This document shows positions 40,084 through 47,020 of a DNA stretch of 64,000 nucleotides, one piece after another. Positions within the stretch are counted from its first letter, which is position 1; every line of letters starts with the position of its first letter. The stretch spans positions 32,001 through 96,000 of the IMG/VR virus record IMGVR_UViG_3300049427_000004, one strand, 5' to 3'. Source of the DNA: a virus. The notes below the pieces were generated by a model. It searched no databases. It was not told the origin of the DNA and saw only the letters and a program-made list of their open reading frames with translations. The position numbers and the translations under genes are program-made.

Positions 40084-40308
40084 TTAGCTTTTAACTGACA
40101 TGTATTCATTTGTAGTCGATTCAATTGCATCTATATCACCTCTGAAAACAGTGATCCATTTCGATAATTCATGCATATTTATTACATTTTCTTTTAAAAC
40201 TGAGTATGTATTTGAAGCTTTATCAATTCCACAGCAATGTTCAATCCACAACAGAAAGCTATCAGGATCATCTTCCCATTTCTCTAGTAAATCATCAATA
40301 TTAATCAA
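40084..40308 (-). CDS. Hypothetical protein downstream of the LytTR gene
   Basis: TTG start at 40308 after RBS GAGGGGG. Confidence 0.55.
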   Translation of the reverse strand: MINIDDLLEKWEDDPDSFLLWIEHCCGIDKASNTYSVLKENVINMHELSKWITVFRGDIDAIESTTNEYMSVKS

Positions 40309-40438
40309 AATTGCTTCCCCCTCTGAATTCACTAGACAATATTTCCTATATATGTAGTATATAAGATCTATATATGGAAATGAATGATCAATTGCTATTA
40401 AAATTATGTATTGACACATAAGCATTTTTTTGCTCTTG

Positions 40439-40508
40439 TGTCGACAAAAAAAGGATAAAGTGTCGAAAAAGACTCAATCCATTGTAATGAACAGAATACT
40501 TTGTCGAA
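40439..40508 (+). promoter_or_regulatory. Cluster of Spo0A-box-like direct repeats
   Basis: TGTCGAC (40439), TGTCGAA (40461), TGTCGAA (40502); 0A consensus TGNCGAA. Confidence 0.5.
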
Positions 40509-40567: not shown

Positions 40568-41071
40568 CTATCTGCTCCCTAATGGCGAATATTCAAATAC
40601 GTCTCTTACTGACTTATTGAGGTATAGATCTCTTTCTTTACCTAATTCAGATTTTAGTACACCTCTAATCGCAGCTCCAGATACAGGAATAGAATGCTCT
40701 TTTGTGAAGTAAACACGATGTAAATTAGAGTGATACCATTGAATCATTTTCATATTAACCAATAATCCATTATCTAATTTCTTAAACTTGAAATTATCTA
40801 CAAGATGATCCTGCATGAACTCTAGATTCACATTAGAAGTTATCACCTCTCCAGTAACGAGAAAGATATTCGTTACATTATTTTTAGGATTGATAGCGTA
40901 TAGAATGGCTTCTACATCTACATTTTTTGCTCTATCTATTTTAACGGGAATGGAAATAAATTGTCCATTCTCCAGATTTTCCGAAATCCAATCACCTAAC
41001 TCCGCAAACTCATACTGCATAAAATTCTGCTCGTTGATTGTTTCTTTAATAAAATCTCTTCTAGTTTTCAT
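40568..41071 (-). CDS. LytTR DNA-binding domain protein without receiver domain
   Basis: NVDVEAILY...NLEFMQDHL..FKKLDNGLLVNMKMI...RVYF...IPVS follows the LytTR pattern; no REC-sized N-terminus. Confidence 0.65.
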   Translation of the reverse strand: MKTRRDFIKETINEQNFMQYEFAELGDWISENLENGQFISIPVKIDRAKNVDVEAILYAINPKNNVTNIFLVTGEVITSNVNLEFMQDHLVDNFKFKKLDNGLLVNMKMIQWYHSNLHRVYFTKEHSIPVSGAAIRGVLKSELGKERDLYLNKSVRDVFEYSPLGSR

Positions 41072-41181
41072 TAAAGTACACCTCATTTCGTTTAATTGAT
41101 GTTAATCGGGTTGTGATTTGCTTGAGTGTACCCCATAAGGCACACCCAAGCATAGTTATGTATTGTTATAAAAATTATGTA

Positions 41182-41286
41182 TTACTTACGCGGATCTAAA
41201 AACCAAACAATTTTTGATGTTGTGATGACAGTTGGGATTGCTAGAATGAGCGCTAACAAAGCTGTTGCGACAGATGACTTTTTAAT
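41182..41286 (-). CDS. AgrD-like (cyclic lactone autoinducer) propeptide, about 34 aa
   Basis: (M)KKSSVATALLALILAIPTVITTSKIVWFLDPRK; RBS GGAGGTG 8 nt before an in-frame ATT (ATG at 41301 is an alternative start); same operon as AgrB. Confidence 0.6.
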   Translation of the reverse strand: MKKSSVATALLALILAIPTVITTSKIVWFLDPRK

Positions 41287-41308
41287 ATTTCTCACCTCCA
41301 TTATAAAA

Positions 41309-41977
41309 TTAACGATACTCATAGTTATCTCTTCTAAAAGAAAGATATAGCAGAATGAGAGTTGAAACAATTAATACGAAAACAAAGATAAGTATTAAGT
41401 GAACATTATTATCATGATGCATACAAATATAGAGAACTCCACTTATAATTAAGATCAATGATACAGTAGCTGTTAGAAATTTTGTGTGTCCACCTTTATC
41501 CAAAGTAAAAGAAAAACCACTTTTACTCCAAATAATGTACAAAGATATTGTTGTTATAAGTGCAGCGTTAATGCTTTGTGTGAAGTAAGCTTTAGTTGAA
41601 AAGGAAGACATTAAATCATTTTCCGTTAGAACTCCGTAATGTAAAAATAATAATACAAGTACTGTTTGAATTAATGTAACTATAACTATTCCTACAGAAG
41701 AAGTGATAAGCATATGTAACTTCTTTTTCTTTGTGATTATAAACAAGAGAATCCAAATTATAAGAAGGTTTATGATTATTGGAGAGACAAAATCGTAAAC
41801 ATTAAATACTACTAGAAGGTATGTGAGAAATGTTGAACCGAGTGTGAGTATTACTAGTTCTTTTTTATAATAAGCAGGATACATATTAAAAAACGCTAAG
41901 ATAAAGAGAAACAAACTAAAATACTCTAGAGAGCTAAAAAACATATACCCTGCAAAATTCACAAAATGATCAACCAT
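41309..41977 (-). CDS. Polytopic membrane protein resembling the AgrC sensor domain, with no kinase domain
   Basis: About 7 hydrophobic segments over 222 aa; the ORF stops just after the last TM with no H-box or HATPase motifs. Confidence 0.7.
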   Translation of the reverse strand: MVDHFVNFAGYMFFSSLEYFSLFLFILAFFNMYPAYYKKELVILTLGSTFLTYLLVVFNVYDFVSPIIINLLIIWILLFIITKKKKLHMLITSSVGIVIVTLIQTVLVLLFLHYGVLTENDLMSSFSTKAYFTQSINAALITTISLYIIWSKSGFSFTLDKGGHTKFLTATVSLILIISGVLYICMHHDNNVHLILIFVFVLIVSTLILLYLSFRRDNYEYR

Positions 41978-41983
41978 CTTCTT

Positions 41984-42508
41984 CTACCGCCTCTTCACTC
42001 TTATTAAATCAAACCCTAAAACTAACCACATTGAAAGAAGGATTTCATTAACATAAAACGACATAACACAAAGTAATAAAGATATTATTTTCTTTGTGTA
42101 GAAGTGTTTTGATTCGTCATTGAAAGGTGCAAATATACTGTGCAAAACAATTGCAGTTATGAATGAAATAGTTGGATAATCTTGAACTATGTAGGATAAT
42201 GGAATCACTCCTAGTATAACTCCTATAGTTAAAAAGTAACAGATATCAACTGAAAAATGATGCCCACCATTCCACCATCTAATAAATGCAAATGAGATAA
42301 ATGACAAGAAAAGCTCTAACCATAATCCTGTTATCCACCCAAAGATTAAAAGTGTTAATGTAACTGCTATGTATAGAAGAATAATTTTCAATCTGTTTTG
42401 AATTTCCGTTAAGTCATTATTTTGTTTTTTTATATTTTCTTTTGTTTCATTTTCTAATTGATTCCAGATCCAACTTCCTATGTGTAAAGCTGCTCTTTTT
42501 AGTAGCAA
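41984..42508 (-). CDS. agrB: AgrB-family peptide-processing membrane protease
   Basis: FIRWWNGGHHFSVDIC (conserved R..GG.H...C catalytic His/Cys) and FAPF motif; multiple TM helices. Confidence 0.8.
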   Translation of the reverse strand: MLLKRAALHIGSWIWNQLENETKENIKKQNNDLTEIQNRLKIILLYIAVTLTLLIFGWITGLWLELFLSFISFAFIRWWNGGHHFSVDICYFLTIGVILGVIPLSYIVQDYPTISFITAIVLHSIFAPFNDESKHFYTKKIISLLLCVMSFYVNEILLSMWLVLGFDLIRVKRR

Positions 42509-42533
42509 TTTTGCATCCCCTTCCGATGTACCT

Positions 42534-42563
42534 AATATATCATGTATTTACTATTCAAGTCAA
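42534..42563 (-). promoter_or_regulatory. SigA-type promoter of the agrB operon
   Basis: TTGACT-N18-TATATT with extended TG; the spacer contains AATACATG. Confidence 0.65.
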
Positions 42564-42611
42564 CGTTTTTTATTTAAATATATCATATTTTGTTTATATA
42601 AAAAAAGAAAA

Positions 42612-42631
42612 CCCTAGATCAATATCTAGGG
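42612..42631 (-). terminator. Hairpin terminator at the end of the YopR-like gene
   Basis: CCCTAGAT-attg-ATCTAGGG followed by a T-rich run on the minus strand. Confidence 0.6.
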
Positions 42632-43600
42632 CAATTGATAAACACTTTTCAGAACTTCTTCATTTAAAACGTCCTGTTTTAGACGATATAAATCACCCTC
42701 GGTCTTGTCGTTAAATCGATCCATAATCATGTCATAGTGCTCATCCACTATTTGATTATTATTGGACACGTATAGCTCTTTTAAATAATAGAGCATACCG
42801 CTCTTCGCAATATTAGCTGGTGTGAATGCAGGTTCGTCGATGCTTTTTGCAATTCTAGCCAGTGCGCTATATACAATGCTTACTCTGGCTTCATTGAAGC
42901 TTTTTACGCGAGTTTTTGCTGTACGAATTATATAATTATTTTCAACTAAAGTTGTGAATTCTGACTTTATATCAGCTGCTGGATCTCCATTTGCTTTGTG
43001 ATACCGTTCTTCATTGTAAGCGTTCATACAGATATCAATAGTTTCTTCTGGAACAGGTATGGTTCTACTAAGAGTGTTATCATCATGTAGATGAAGTCTG
43101 TGATTCGCAATATCTATGCTTTCTCTTTGTAAATTTAGTAATTCAGAACCACCTGTGCCCATCACGCCCTGAAAAATCAATTCAATTATCGCTTTATCTC
43201 GATGATTTACTCTGCCTCTGATTATTTTATTGATTTCGTCTCTAGTCCAAAACCTTTTCAGTACTTTGTTCGCGAACATTTGCTTCCACTCAGTATCAAC
43301 GAAGTCTAAAGGGTTAGTTCCAGTCTTATATCCAAGTTCTAAATTCCAATCAATATATTTCGATACATATGCTACGTTTGCCCCACTGGAAGCTTTTGTG
43401 GCTGGTCTAAAGAGATAAAATAGCTTCAATAGATCATCACGATTGAAATCAGCTAAGTCCTTATCGAGTTGTTCTTCAAGAGGTTGAGACACTTTAAAGA
43501 TTCTTGCGTTAATTTCTCTCGTTCCCTTGCTTTTAGTTGCCAGATATTCAAATTTGCGGTCTTGATTATATAGTCGGTCTTCATAGACAACATTAGACAT
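42626..43600 (-). CDS. SPbeta YopR/SroF-like master repressor (catalytically degenerate tyrosine-recombinase fold)
   Basis: 324 aa; YIDW, DKAIIELIFQGV, SELLNL, LVENNYIIRT and TPANIAKSG match my recollection of YopR; catalytic R and HxxR absent; follows a YopQ-like gene. Confidence 0.75.
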   Translation of the reverse strand: MSNVVYEDRLYNQDRKFEYLATKSKGTREINARIFKVSQPLEEQLDKDLADFNRDDLLKLFYLFRPATKASSGANVAYVSKYIDWNLELGYKTGTNPLDFVDTEWKQMFANKVLKRFWTRDEINKIIRGRVNHRDKAIIELIFQGVMGTGGSELLNLQRESIDIANHRLHLHDDNTLSRTIPVPEETIDICMNAYNEERYHKANGDPAADIKSEFTTLVENNYIIRTAKTRVKSFNEARVSIVYSALARIAKSIDEPAFTPANIAKSGMLYYLKELYVSNNNQIVDEHYDMIMDRFNDKTEGDLYRLKQDVLNEEVLKSVYQLP

Positions 43601-43621: not shown

Positions 43622-44968
43622 TTATTCAAACATGCTTCTTAATTCTTCTTGAAAATACTTTCTAATCAATTCTTTACTTTGGTTGGAATTTCTATTTCCT
43701 TGCTCTAGCATAATTTTGTCTAGTTTATTACCAGTTCCTTTTGTATAGTCAATCGTTTCAATTCCTTGAGTAATTAGACTAACAGGAAATTCTAATGATC
43801 CATTATATTTGTCGTAAATCAATTTTGCTAAAATCATAAATCCGCAGTGCATATTGTGATGATTAAACCAGCTTACAGAACGTCTTTTTTTCATGTCTGT
43901 TTTAAAATCTTCTGGGTATGCAGACAAGAAATATCCATAAAACTTTTTCAAGAAATCAGAAATCTCATACATCTCTTTTGTGCTTTCTGGTTTAAAGGTA
44001 ATATTTATTGAGTCAGCAAGTATTGAGTAGTTTGTGATCATATTCAAAGTCTTGCTTACAGTAGTCTTATCTGTTTCTACTCTATCTCTTAGTTCTGGAA
44101 TTTGAATCAAGTTTTTGGTTACTAGACCACCGAAAGAGTCATCTGTATTAAATCTTACTAAGTTCTTATCAAAGCGATTGACAGTATTCAATAATCCGAT
44201 ATGGTAACGAGCCATATTTAAATCATAATTACGAATCGAAACTTCAAATGATCCTTCTAAATCAGGATTCTCTTCCAAAGCTGCCATGGTTCCCATCAAA
44301 CGGTGCATGCCGTCTACAATGTTGAGGTTCGTTCCCTCTTCAATAATCAAATCCCCATCTTCGTATTCATAATTGTCATTTCCATCTGCAAGTATGTTGA
44401 AAGTTAATGTTGACTTAAGAAATTTACCTTCAAGCATTAATCTTGCGATATTATTCACGCTCTTTTTTATTACTGTAGGAGTTTTTTTGATGTTTCCTTT
44501 TGCCATTAACTTTTTCTTAGGTGCTCTTTGTGTTTCATAGTTATACGTCAAAAGACCTGCGTTCCATATCTTTTTAAGTTCTTGGTAAGTGATTAATGTT
44601 AAAAATTCATTGTGAGATGCTCTCAGTACACCTTCAATGACATAGGGAAATTCAAACCTGTCCTCTTGTTTCAGTTTAAGTTTTAATCCTTTTTGAATTT
44701 CTTTCTCGCTAAAAAATAATGTTGGAGCAATTCTTTCGTCTTTAGCAATCACATGCATTGCATGAATAATACAAATTAATTCTTCTTGGGTCAAGAAATT
44801 CAGTTTTTCATTATCATTCATGACTTGATCAAAAGTACCAAAAGTCATTTTGTGCTTCTGTGCGAGATATTCATCGATTTCTCTCAATTTGTCCTTATCT
44901 TTTGTCAAATCTGCAAACACTTCATTTATTGATTCTAAGATGTCTTTCTCTTGTGCTACTTCGCTCAT
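43622..44968 (-). CDS. DGQHR/DndB-domain protein, SPbeta YopQ/SroE-like
   Basis: YNYETQR, IVDGMHRL, IGLLNT; 448 aa; synteny with the YopR-like gene. Confidence 0.75.
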   Translation of the reverse strand: MSEVAQEKDILESINEVFADLTKDKDKLREIDEYLAQKHKMTFGTFDQVMNDNEKLNFLTQEELICIIHAMHVIAKDERIAPTLFFSEKEIQKGLKLKLKQEDRFEFPYVIEGVLRASHNEFLTLITYQELKKIWNAGLLTYNYETQRAPKKKLMAKGNIKKTPTVIKKSVNNIARLMLEGKFLKSTLTFNILADGNDNYEYEDGDLIIEEGTNLNIVDGMHRLMGTMAALEENPDLEGSFEVSIRNYDLNMARYHIGLLNTVNRFDKNLVRFNTDDSFGGLVTKNLIQIPELRDRVETDKTTVSKTLNMITNYSILADSINITFKPESTKEMYEISDFLKKFYGYFLSAYPEDFKTDMKKRRSVSWFNHHNMHCGFMILAKLIYDKYNGSLEFPVSLITQGIETIDYTKGTGNKLDKIMLEQGNRNSNQSKELIRKYFQEELRSMFE

Positions 44969-45217: not shown

Positions 45218-46072
45218 CTACTCAAGAAACTCCACAAACACTGGAGTCATCATATTCCCACTTCTCAAAAATCCTCTATGCTTTACTCTACACTTTATCA
45301 CTGGTTGAATCCAAACACTATTTTCGTTCTCACCAGTTTTCAATGTTTCAGCTAAAGGATAAAACTCCTTTTTCTGTTTTGGCGAAATTCCAAACTCAAC
45401 AAAACCTTTTCCTTCATCATTTTTTAGATACCAACCTACACTATCTTTCCTATAACCAGTTATTACACAGTCTGAGTAATACCAGTTAATAATCTTGTAG
45501 AAAACGTCTTTTGGTCTTTTACCAGCCTGATATCGTGAATCTAGACGTTTGGCTACCATACCCTCCAGTTCATGCTGTTTGATTATCTCAAAAAGTATTT
45601 TCCCTTTCTCTGCTACATAAACAACTTTAGTCATATGTGGTTGATTCTCAACAACTTTATCTAAAATTTGTTTGCGCTCCAATAAAGGTAAATTCAAAAT
45701 AGACTTATTTTTATTAAATAGAATATCAAAAACAATAAATGTCGTTGGAAACTTTTTTACTGCAAATTCAACACTGATACTCTTCTTACTTGTTATTCGA
45801 CTCATTACAGCTTCGAAATCCTCTTTTAATGGGTTTTCTGGATCATAACAGACTAATTCTCCATCCAAAATAATACCCTTATCAACCTTAAGAGAAGTGA
45901 TTTCAGGTAAACTTGAAGTTATGTCATTACCATGACGAGTAAAGAGTTTAATTCCATTTTCAGAACTAATCAATTCCAGTCTAACTCCATTTGCTTTGGG
46001 TTCAAAAATAAATTTACTTGAATCAAAAGGAGTTTCACGACTATCAAGTAGCATAGGTTCAATGAACTTCAT
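45218..46072 (-). CDS. ATP-dependent DNA ligase (minimal, LigD ligase-domain type)
   Basis: EPKANGVR (KxxG), ILDGELV, FIVFDIL, EGMVAK, YKI motifs. Confidence 0.9.
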   Translation of the reverse strand: MKFIEPMLLDSRETPFDSSKFIFEPKANGVRLELISSENGIKLFTRHGNDITSSLPEITSLKVDKGIILDGELVCYDPENPLKEDFEAVMSRITSKKSISVEFAVKKFPTTFIVFDILFNKNKSILNLPLLERKQILDKVVENQPHMTKVVYVAEKGKILFEIIKQHELEGMVAKRLDSRYQAGKRPKDVFYKIINWYYSDCVITGYRKDSVGWYLKNDEGKGFVEFGISPKQKKEFYPLAETLKTGENENSVWIQPVIKCRVKHRGFLRSGNMMTPVFVEFLE

Positions 46073-46908
46073 ATAGTTGCTTTCCTTTGTGTTAATTTCT
46101 TCTTAGTTCTTGGCGCTGTTTCTTCAGAAGGGACTATGAGAGGTTTCTTTGTTTTTTCAATTGAAGCCTGAAGCATATCCATTAAATTCGAACCTTCAGA
46201 CTCATTAGAACCAATTTTATCGACTTGATCATCTTCAATTTTTGCATTAATCAAAGTCATCAAATCTGACCTATATTCATTTTGATATTTTGTTGGATCA
46301 AATGAAACTGTCAGCTGCTCTATTAATAACTTTGCTACACTAAGTTCTCTTTCATCAACAGCTTCCTCGGAAATGTTAGGTACATTCTCTACTGGTCTTA
46401 CTTCATCTGGAAAATGAATGGTTTCTAGAATGATTGATTTTTTATATGTCCGTATAACGGCTAGTTGCTGATTTGAGCGCATTGTAATCTTGGCTATACC
46501 AACCTTGTTTGTGTCAGTTAAAACTCTCCTCAAGAGCGAATAGGCACGTTTATGACCATCTTCTGGTGATAGGTAATAACTGTTGTTGAAGTATATAGGA
46601 TCGATCTCTTCAATTTTAATAAAATCAACAACTTCTACATTCTTAGCCTCATATTTATTTTTAAGTTCTTGAATCTCACTATCATCAATAACAACATACT
46701 TATCTTTTGCATATTCATATCCTTTAACTACATTTCCGTCAGCAATAATTATATCTTTTTCAGATGTGGTTTTTACTTGTTTTATTGGTTCGAGCGTGTC
46801 CTTTTGGAGATTTTTAAATTTTATGTCCTTGTCCTCAACAGCACTATGTAACTTCACACTTATGTTTAGAAGACCAAAAGAAATATTCCCTTTCCAAAAT
46901 GTGTGCAT
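46069..46908 (-). CDS. ku: Ku protein (NHEJ DNA-end binding)
   Basis: MHTFWKGNISFGLLNISVKLHSA, KGYEYAKDKYV, IDPIYFNNSYYL, FPDEVR. Confidence 0.95.
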   Translation of the reverse strand: MHTFWKGNISFGLLNISVKLHSAVEDKDIKFKNLQKDTLEPIKQVKTTSEKDIIIADGNVVKGYEYAKDKYVVIDDSEIQELKNKYEAKNVEVVDFIKIEEIDPIYFNNSYYLSPEDGHKRAYSLLRRVLTDTNKVGIAKITMRSNQQLAVIRTYKKSIILETIHFPDEVRPVENVPNISEEAVDERELSVAKLLIEQLTVSFDPTKYQNEYRSDLMTLINAKIEDDQVDKIGSNESEGSNLMDMLQASIEKTKKPLIVPSEETAPRTKKKLTQRKATI

Positions 46909-47020
46909 AAAAATACCACCCTTCAGTTTTACATTTAGGATGGTCTGGTTTTTTATCAAATATTCAATTACGCCTTTATTAATTCTTAATACATTTCTTT
47001 ATTTCAAAGTTACTCAAATA

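Follow-up and report, generated by a model that had tools for sequence, protein, structure and literature searches.

A kinase-less Agr-type cassette beside the master repressor gene of an SPbeta-like phage: a candidate for peptide signalling by membrane sequestration

In the HdrRM and BrsRM systems of Streptococcus mutans, a membrane protein is thought to hold a receiver-less LytTR regulator inactive, and direct repeats with a period of 21 bp are the signature of LytTR operators (PMC6193735). Peptidase activity of Staphylococcus aureus AgrB requires residues R70, G75, H77 and C84, and residue E34 of AgrD is essential for cleavage (PMC10196373). A canonical agr system is present in Paenibacillus polymyxa (PMC12180512). 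Among phages, phiCDHM1 of Clostridioides difficile is reported to carry homologues of agrB, agrC and agrD and no AgrA (PMC3901668; PMC11945551). The master repressor of phage SPbeta is MrpR, also named YopR (PMC8612738; PMC10516654). The present analysis concerns a four-gene cassette in a stretch of 64,000 nucleotides (the window), which comprises bases 32001-96000 of the IMG/VR virus record IMGVR_UViG_3300049427_000004; the record is 178,866 bp long, is estimated to be 93% complete and is matched by one DNA sequencing run, a freshwater metagenome that is probably its source. The evidence is computational throughout. In gene order, the cassette encodes an AgrB homologue, a seven-helix membrane protein (the predicted sensor), a short propeptide in the position of AgrD and a LytTR protein, and it lies directly downstream of an MrpR-like repressor gene. 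A preliminary description had placed these four genes on the minus strand of a phage genome behind one promoter; their coordinates were confirmed, and the virus record with its SPbeta/Tsamsa-like genes bears out the phage origin. On balance, and with some reserve, we favour reading the cassette as a phage quorum-sensing module that is complete in itself and lies beside the master repressor gene, the signal being passed on by membrane sequestration and without phosphorylation.

The kinase-less design is most evident in the sensor (41309-41977, 222 aa; minus strand, as for all features located below). Its AlphaFold2 (AF2) model consists of seven helices (predicted local distance difference test score, pLDDT, 94.8; predicted template modelling score, pTM, 0.91), and because all 12 Lys/Arg residues of its loops fall on one side, the sequence predicts an N-terminus outside and a C-terminus inside the cell. 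A phmmer search of 1.84 billion representatives returned 56 relatives, nearly all of 211-240 aa, the exceptions being a few partial sequences and one protein of 293 aa. The profile of this family matches residues 1-215 of kinases adjacent to agrB and agrD over its entire length, and hhalign aligned the sensor with residues 1-215 of a 458-aa HisKA-type histidine kinase beside agrB/agrD at 99.5% (E 2e-22). In such kinases, which measure 454-466 aa, the sensor domain forms the N-terminal 215 residues and is followed by HisKA/HATPase_c; their genes adjoin a receiver/GerE regulator, AgrB and a small peptide gene. As judged by these alignments, the phage protein is the counterpart of the sensor half found in Agr-linked kinases and ends where the kinase half starts, which is the boundary that the preliminary description had proposed. 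A broken or frameshifted agrC, which that description had named as the finding that would overturn it, was looked for and rejected: the family keeps a constant length of about 220 aa, and the peptide and LytTR genes follow directly. A domain search of the whole 178.9-kb phage record found no HATPase_c, HATPase_c_5 or Response_reg domain, and hence no kinase core.

Searches by fold and by other databases added little to this assignment. Foldseek returned no solved structure for the sensor model at E <= 0.001, VIA-align returned only generic helical hairpins (Z <= 8.4), and a search of the ESM Atlas gave only unnamed clusters; the missing fold matches are no evidence that the fold is new. A word-indexed search found no long fused relatives, which is weak evidence, and six-frame genome searches did find fused forms. 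Other arrangements of the family were also seen. In L070:1649-3753, L072:2234-4346 and L071:2433-3674 (L numbers designate individual related loci), the sensor carries an extra C-terminal domain of about 200 aa without a Pfam match, giving 413-421 aa in total. AgrB and an AgrD-like gene follow the extended sensor gene. In L070 it is preceded by a gene for a separate soluble HisKA/HATPase_c kinase of 269 aa, and L072 has a 270-aa gene that resembles the soluble kinase gene by size. This third architecture may be a split sensor-kinase. Tandem arrays of three or four paralogous kinase-less sensor genes occur in some genomes of the Paenibacillus order (G007:C17:60113-67766; G016:C332:2071-6478; G217:C35:1340-3675; G025:C93:1661-4029).

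The last gene of the cassette (40568-41086) encodes a 172-aa DNA-binding protein with a LytTR domain at about residues 43-150, preceded by low-confidence helices in residues 1-40 of the AF2 model. The Pfam LytTR profile scores 23.1 bits against a cut-off of 22.6, a profile made from 14 family members matches the LytTR chains of AgrA (E 6e-6), and Foldseek places the AF2 model on the AgrA LytTR domain (4g4k/3bs1) with a template modelling (TM) score of 0.84-0.85 and a root-mean-square deviation of 2.1. As the preliminary description had noted, the protein has no receiver domain, and none is encoded elsewhere in the phage. When the sensor and the LytTR protein were modelled together as two chains, the interface score ipSAE was 0.66 in three runs, and the best of three controls reached 0.00. 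Of 80 solved complexes, 58 attain the mark of 0.66, as do 2 of 110 mismatched pairs; because own alignments were used, this calibration is only rough, and the score is the model's own confidence. The runs share at least 98% of their contacts, and the pLDDT of the partner is 70.

On the side of the sensor, the modelled contacts lie in loop 1-2 (residues 30-37), loop 3-4 (82-84), loop 5-6 (151-158) and the C-terminus (217-222). These are all four cytoplasmic elements, and they contain the best-conserved residues of the family: loop 5-6 is a near-invariant G-F-x-F loop (G154, F155, F157), and the C-terminus has the invariant D217 and E220. On the side of the LytTR protein, contacts are made by residues 67-71, 103-107 and 134-139. 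The first and the last of these stretches align with AgrA loops that hold H169 and R233, which we take to be DNA contacts in the AgrA-DNA structure. In a HMMER alignment, residues 101-107 correspond to FFRCHNS of AgrA (196-202), residues 103-107 thus to R198-S202, and AgrA residues R198, N201 and S202 touch DNA (PMC4227749). Because the contacts align with the DNA-contact loops of AgrA, the model predicts that the sensor covers the DNA-binding face of the LytTR protein, a form of sequestration like that put forward for HdrRM and BrsRM (PMC6193735). Binding of the two proteins is supported, not demonstrated, by this complex model. The proposal of the preliminary description that a membrane protein controls the LytTR factor without phosphorylation thus stands in part: it agrees with a complex model that passed its controls and with LytTR-type direct repeats downstream, whereas the direction of the switch remains an inference.

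These repeats are three direct copies of TCGACA, putative LytTR boxes, between the LytTR gene and a small gene that is referred to here as gene X (40439-40507; copies at 40507-40502, 40466-40461 and 40444-40439, spaced 41 and 22 bp). AgrA boxes likewise have a 21-bp period. TCGACA recurs at 21-22 bp spacing in the same place in L002, L003, L005, L006 and L008, which makes six loci with the window, and TTCGACA also occurs 3' of the LytTR gene in further MrpR-linked cassettes with a period of 11-12 bp. Within the 178.9-kb phage genome the phased cluster is unique. A conserved TCAATACATAAT with the -10 element CATAAT of gene X lies 30 nt downstream of the proximal repeat. This -10 (40403-40408), read from the sequence within the conserved TCAATACATAA, has no recognisable -35, and the gene X promoter looks like an activator-dependent one.

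Gene X (40084-40308) encodes a conserved small acidic protein of 74 aa from a TTG at 40308. The start was chosen from the Shine-Dalgarno site GAGGGGGAA, the aligned W-E-D motif and the length of the orthologues (77-83 aa), which are encoded 3' of the LytTR gene in L002, L003, L005-L008 and L033. A 113-aa open reading frame (40084-40425) was rejected as over-extended, its first 39 codons covering the gene X promoter and 5' leader. Gene X is likely to be the output of the switch, its promoter being best read as the only target. In L009/L010:3643-5303, on contigs of 140-158 kb, a gene X homologue lies upstream of the sensor gene, and the peptide ends in K-L-W-W-F-C-D-P-Q-K. The gene X -10 is also contained in a more general motif, TCAATACATAW, for which the window has 23 sites if one mismatch is allowed, including those at 40404-40414 and 41156-41166. 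Most of the sites are on the minus strand. The expected number is 8.3, and none of 100 shuffles reached 23; the motif may serve this phage widely as a promoter or operator element.

The signal-making half of the cassette begins with the AgrB homologue (41984-42508), a predicted peptide-processing membrane cysteine peptidase of 174 aa with a TTG start. Its identification as an AgrB-like protease with a GGHH...C motif was upheld by a profile test, in which Pfam AgrB (PF04647) scored 48.7 bits against a cut-off of 23 (E 7.3e-13) over profile positions 10-157 of 185, and it was recovered in a six-frame genome search too. Residues R77, G82, H84 and C90 align with R70, G75, H77 and C84 of the S. aureus enzyme, and the R, H and C are invariant in an alignment of phage-type and kinase-linked AgrBs. 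In the close clade of the window, the distance from His to Cys is 6 rather than 7. A tie between this shortened spacing and the Lys-type peptides described below was rejected, as L014 and L017 have Lys-type peptides with normal spacing. Back-translated pattern searches of IMG/VR found no close relatives of either the sensor or AgrB.

The propeptide gene (41182-41286) is read as 34 codons from an ATT at 41286, which follows the Shine-Dalgarno site GGAGGTGA at a distance of six bases, and yields a predicted core KIVWF followed by the tail LDPRK. An alternative ATG at 41301, five codons upstream, gives 39 aa and overlaps the Shine-Dalgarno site; the 34-aa reading is the better one because orthologues have ATG, GTG or TTG exactly at the ATT codon. 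The reading frame and the Shine-Dalgarno site are conserved in eight loci, and eight close orthologues end in K-x-x-x-F-[C/L/I]-D-x-x-K-stop. Because the window has Leu at the variable position of this motif, Cys is not required there. The traits of an AgrD that are found include a small gene beside agrB, a hydrophobic leader, a five-residue hydrophobic core, Pro at tail position +3 and Asp at +2, the last paralleling E34 of AgrD. The label of AgrD-like propeptide given in the preliminary description therefore fits the conserved gene and its position in the AgrD slot, but the peptide has no Cys, and its Ser, which precedes the Lys, is replaced by Ala, Asp or Leu in orthologues.

Twelve peptides of this Lys type were compared, and in all of them the Lys is invariant and the core is without Cys. 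They occur mostly in cassettes with a nearby MrpR-like gene, where the flank is long enough to show one. In sister cassettes, the peptides are textbook AgrDs with a hydrophobic leader, C or S, four residues and H/Y/F/N-x-P-x-x-P-x-E-L, for example C-F-G-I-W/F-E-P-E-A-P-K-E and S-N-F-F-F/H-Q-P-E-P-P-K-E-L-L-K-K. When the peptides are aligned on the Pro of the tail, the invariant Lys falls at the nucleophile position (K-I-V-W-F/L-D-P in the window, K-V-A-F-W/H-L-P in L051), with an ambiguous register for L017 and L019. A Ser/Thr lactone formed from S-K-I-V-W-F was set aside, given the substitutions of the Ser and the absence of Thr in two orthologues. A ring through Cys at +1 of the tail was rejected, as that position is Leu or Ile in the window and in L008, and the protein stops four residues later. 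Beside a kinase-fused sensor, the peptide of L034:4097-4219 has neither Cys nor Ser in the canonical register (…S-H-I-Q-K-G-I-L-G-E-P-E-I-P-K-K…) and reaches 15.7 bits with the AgrD model, whose cut-off is 19; Lys-type peptides may therefore extend beyond phages.

The cyclic peptide of the preliminary description is thus a candidate only, since the ring position is held by an invariant Lys and not by Cys or Ser. The signal would be a linear product or, with about the same likelihood, a macrolactam that forms when the thioester intermediate on AgrB is resolved by the amine of the Lys. A linear signal, cut and exported by AgrB or by signal peptidase alone, without a ring and with the remaining pathway unchanged, is quite possible as an account of the whole locus. 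It agrees with the absence of Cys and the unconserved Ser among the 12 peptides, with a signal-peptidase-like A/S-x-A/S site just before the Lys in most of them, with the very short tail after the core, and with the distant loci L009 and L010, in which the sensor, peptide and LytTR genes are present and agrB is not adjacent. Against it, an AgrB with an intact catalytic motif is kept in nearly all Lys-type cassettes, and the Lys is invariant exactly where sister peptides place their nucleophile, as in K-V-A-F-W-H-L-P of L051 compared with C/S-x-x-x-x-H-x-P. An amine is moreover able, by general chemistry, to resolve a thioester acyl-enzyme.

In the phosphorylation-free signalling pathway that we favour, AgrB would process and export the 34-aa propeptide, giving the core KIVWF with a short N-terminal extension, maybe closed through the Lys side chain. 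The seven-helix protein would sense this peptide outside the cell, and its four cytoplasmic elements would hold the receiver-less LytTR protein by the DNA-binding face. Binding of the peptide would alter this hold, by which the LytTR protein would be either released or captured. Once free, the LytTR protein would bind the phased TCGACA repeats and activate gene X from its activator-dependent promoter, possibly together with early genes further on. The cassette would most likely feed the density of phage or lysogens into the lysis-lysogeny or induction decision, because it directly follows an MrpR-type gene in a phage without the arbitrium receptor. In the phage record, the best match of the AimR model NF038310 was a partial one of 19 bits in a 144-aa frame, against a cut-off of 70, and Bacillus subtilis, as a control, scores above this cut-off.

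Several observations weigh against this pathway. Where AgrD has a Cys or Ser nucleophile, five residues before the cleavage site, the peptide of the window has Lys; the AgrD model TIGR04223 gave no match at E up to 1 to a 62-aa or a 38-aa reading; and the tail after the core has only five residues. The homology of the sensor to true AgrC sensors appears moderate only: a 469-aa AgrC-like kinase (SPOB_a and HATPase_c_5), whose gene adjoins agrB and an AgrD-like gene, was aligned by hhalign at 83.6% (E 8e-6) over 120 columns, as a single sequence. The best-matching kinases are of the HisKA type with NarL-type regulators and do not belong to the AgrC subfamily. The nature of the complex score and the loci without an adjacent agrB, both given above, count on the same side. 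A pair of TCGACA repeats alone is only marginally unexpected in the phage genome (P ~0.06), and the repeats carry weight because they are conserved across loci. No TCGACA box was found at the cassette's own promoter, which argues that there is no agr-type autoinduction loop. The protein of gene X has no match among Pfam or PHROG families, and no RNA sequencing runs are listed as matching the phage record.

The kinase-less design is not peculiar to this phage. The same four-gene order is found in at least seven divergent loci and is therefore not due to chance, and a cassette adjoins an MrpR-like gene in at least 15 distinct loci. Large contigs with AgrB relatives of 54-73% identity encode, in order, DndB-like, MrpR-like, AgrB and membrane proteins and, after a gap, proteins of about 180 and about 80 aa. 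The relatives of the sensor show the same order, including those in prophages of the Paenibacillus sp. and Paenibacillus xylaniclasticus chromosomes, and a pattern scan of genome contigs returned one locus, which is L007. Locus L007/L011 is the prophage of P. xylaniclasticus NBRC 106381, a relative that can be cultivated. In the GTDB order of P. xylaniclasticus, the sensor profile matches 212 of 301 genomes (about 70%), several of them in multiple copies, with frames almost always of 212-260 aa; in a 301-genome sample of the whole class, the family is present in 32 genomes. Among 40 loci from the order sample, the sensor gene is beside agrB in 35 and beside a short LytTR gene (118-186 aa) in at least 22, the latter count being a lower bound, as the LytTR model derives from the phage clade alone and only short flanks were covered. 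An upstream MrpR-like gene, and thus an SPbeta-like prophage, goes with the order agrB, sensor, peptide, LytTR; for the order sensor, agrB, peptide, LytTR, no MrpR-like gene was found within the short flanks that were fetched. Kinase-less cassettes are accordingly widespread in Paenibacillales chromosomes and prophages, and 50,697 records of isolated phages gave no DNA or protein match for the cassette.

This distribution bears on whether the cassette addresses other phages or the host. It could listen to or jam the kinase-less Agr-type systems of the host, without any phage-to-phage counting, either because the phage sensor reads peptides of the host or because the phage peptide acts on host sensors; a peptide sink or cross-talk with host agr had been the alternative of the preliminary description. 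The presence of the sensor family, often in multiple copies, in 212 of the 301 host-order genomes means that related signals and receptors coexist in the host, and phage and chromosomal cassettes are homologous throughout. Such cross-talk nevertheless seems unlikely as the function of the locus. The phage cassette is complete, with maker, peptide, sensor, regulator and operator, and the only phased TCGACA cluster of the phage genome is within the cassette region. The Lys-type peptide of MrpR-linked cassettes, as opposed to the Cys or Ser of the chromosomal ones examined, argues for a private channel.

The phage-to-phage module outlined above also assigns the seven-helix protein a role as receptor, and it is improbable that this protein is instead an accessory for maturation, export or immunity of the peptide, with the LytTR protein as an independent regulator. 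Such a role would agree with the position of its gene beside agrB in 35 of 40 loci, and the binding of a ligand by the protein is inferred; there is also a precedent in S. aureus, in which maturation of the autoinducing peptide (AIP) is reported to need a further membrane protein, MroQ (bioRxiv 10.1101/516914). A protease of the MroQ/CPBP type was rejected here, since the phage protein matches no Pfam family and lacks a His/Glu motif. Against an accessory role, histidine kinases have this domain as their N-terminal sensor part, the modelled complex with the LytTR protein stood up to its controls, and the most conserved residues are in the contacting cytoplasmic loops.

The cassette is set among the lysogeny and early genes of the phage. 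Almost all genes of the window, which has a GC content of about 33%, are on the minus strand. Directly upstream is the MrpR (YopR)-like master repressor gene (42626-43600; Pfam MrpR_N_CB, E 3e-22; MrpR_C_cat, E 1.5e-19). Its product is 29% identical, across 96% of its length, to the protein annotated 'yopR: prophage repressor' in Goe14, an SPbeta-type phage; with YopR of SPbeta-type phages and gp94 of Bacillus phages of the Tsamsa type, it shares 29-31% identity over 94-96% of its length. A DndB/DGQHR-like gene (43622-44968; Pfam DndB, E 4.4e-17) occupies the position of YopQ, upstream of the repressor gene. A DndB-like gene also precedes the MrpR-like gene in related loci, and in Goe14 an unnamed gene of about 460 aa sits just before yopR, the arbitrium genes aimR and aimP being located about 3.7 kb upstream of yopR. 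Genes for Ku and an ATP-dependent DNA ligase (Pfam) are found just upstream of the DndB-like/MrpR-like pair in L002 and L006; two open reading frames at 45218-46959 of the window (284 and 296 aa) correspond to them by size and position alone. Downstream of the cassette follow a small gene, tRNA-Met, a YorF-like gene and a gene for a Sak4-like annealing protein. In Tsamsa, the interval from repressor to Sak4 holds two small genes only.

The repressor gene ends at an intrinsic terminator (42611-42632), a 9-bp stem followed by TTTCTTTTTT. The strong cassette promoter (42534-42563) is the best sigma-70-type match in the region (10/12), with TTGACT, an 18-nt spacer, TATATT and an upstream TG that makes it an extended -10; TTGACT and the -10 are kept in related loci. 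Between the peptide and LytTR genes is a stable hairpin (41119-41152) with a 15-bp stem and without a U-tract (-24.9 kcal/mol, z -4.8). Hairpins of unrelated sequence are found at the same place in L006, L007, L008 and L009. The hairpin may attenuate transcription or stabilise a 3' end and so set the ratio of the signal-making genes to the regulator. A promoter of its own after a terminator would also suit a lysogenic-conversion module whose LytTR protein regulates host genes without a role in the phage life cycle, and in PHROGs the nearest family of membrane proteins is classed as 'moron, auxiliary metabolic gene and host takeover'. Such a role is improbable, however, given that in many prophages the cassette has a fixed place, with the master repressor gene on one side and early genes (YorF-like, Sak4-like) on the other, and that the conserved candidate operator belongs to the phage itself and immediately precedes a conserved phage gene.

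If the sequestration module is real, Agr-type peptide signalling would be possible without a two-component phosphorelay, and the agr and LytTR Regulatory Systems, fields that have so far been studied separately, would be joined. A large unannotated class of signalling systems would become interpretable, the sensor family being present in about 70% of the sampled Paenibacillus-order genomes. SPbeta-like phages would have a second, mechanistically different communication system at their lysogeny control region, so that one could test whether lysis-lysogeny decisions that depend on density arose repeatedly in evolution. An autoinducer closed through Lys would represent a new natural peptide chemistry for AgrB, hydrolytically stable unlike thiolactones, and LytTR Regulatory Systems would obtain their first defined ligand. 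The full combination, namely a third way of peptide quorum transduction in Bacillota with a Lys-closed (lactam) peptide, control of lysis-lysogeny in SPbeta-like phages that lack AimR and a first ligand for LytTR Regulatory Systems, is put forward only tentatively and is rather doubtful as a whole.

Closure of an Agr-type ring by a residue other than Cys has a precedent in the Ser-lactone autoinducers, which include GBAP of Enterococcus faecalis and those of the Staphylococcus intermedius group, and the sister cassettes described here likewise use Ser. To our knowledge, no natural Agr-type peptide with a ring closed through Lys (an amide) has been described. In the full-text literature searched, the coverage of which is incomplete, neither a kinase-less Agr cassette nor Agr genes beside MrpR are described. 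The cassette resembles staphylococcal agr in its AgrB homologue, which has the R/G/H/C motif, in its polytopic membrane sensor and in a propeptide whose hydrophobic leader is followed by a hydrophobic core of five residues and a tail with an acidic residue at position +2; a LytTR output on direct repeats about 21 bp apart is predicted as well. It differs in having neither a histidine kinase part nor a receiver, and hence no phosphorelay, in its gene order (B, sensor, D, regulator), in the Lys that takes the place of the Cys/Ser nucleophile, in a promoter without LytTR boxes and in the HisKA type of the closest kinase-fused relatives of its sensor.

The likeness to HdrRM and BrsRM lies in a receiver-less LytTR regulator that is co-encoded with a membrane protein, an association conserved across loci, and in direct repeats close to a promoter. 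The membrane partners are not related, however, the one here having no DUF2154 and no Pfam match, the regulator gene is downstream of the membrane gene and not upstream of it, and the repeats are predicted to control a downstream gene instead of their own operon. The AgrB/peptide pair also offers a candidate ligand, whereas no activating signal is named for the streptococcal systems (PMC6193735). Like phiCDHM1, the present phage carries Agr-type signalling genes; unlike phiCDHM1 as reported, it has no kinase and possesses a dedicated LytTR factor and a putative operator. The arbitrium of SPbeta-family phages (PMC8612738) is also similar in that a predicted secreted peptide is encoded by the phage near the YopQ/YopR (MrpR) lysogeny genes, and in that a transcription factor, here a predicted one, works through a single site that immediately precedes a small gene further downstream. 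The two differ in that the phage has no intracellular receptor of the AimR type with tetratricopeptide repeats (TPR), sensing being predicted to take place at the membrane and not after import, and in that the cassette lies downstream of the repressor gene, whereas arbitrium is upstream of the operon.

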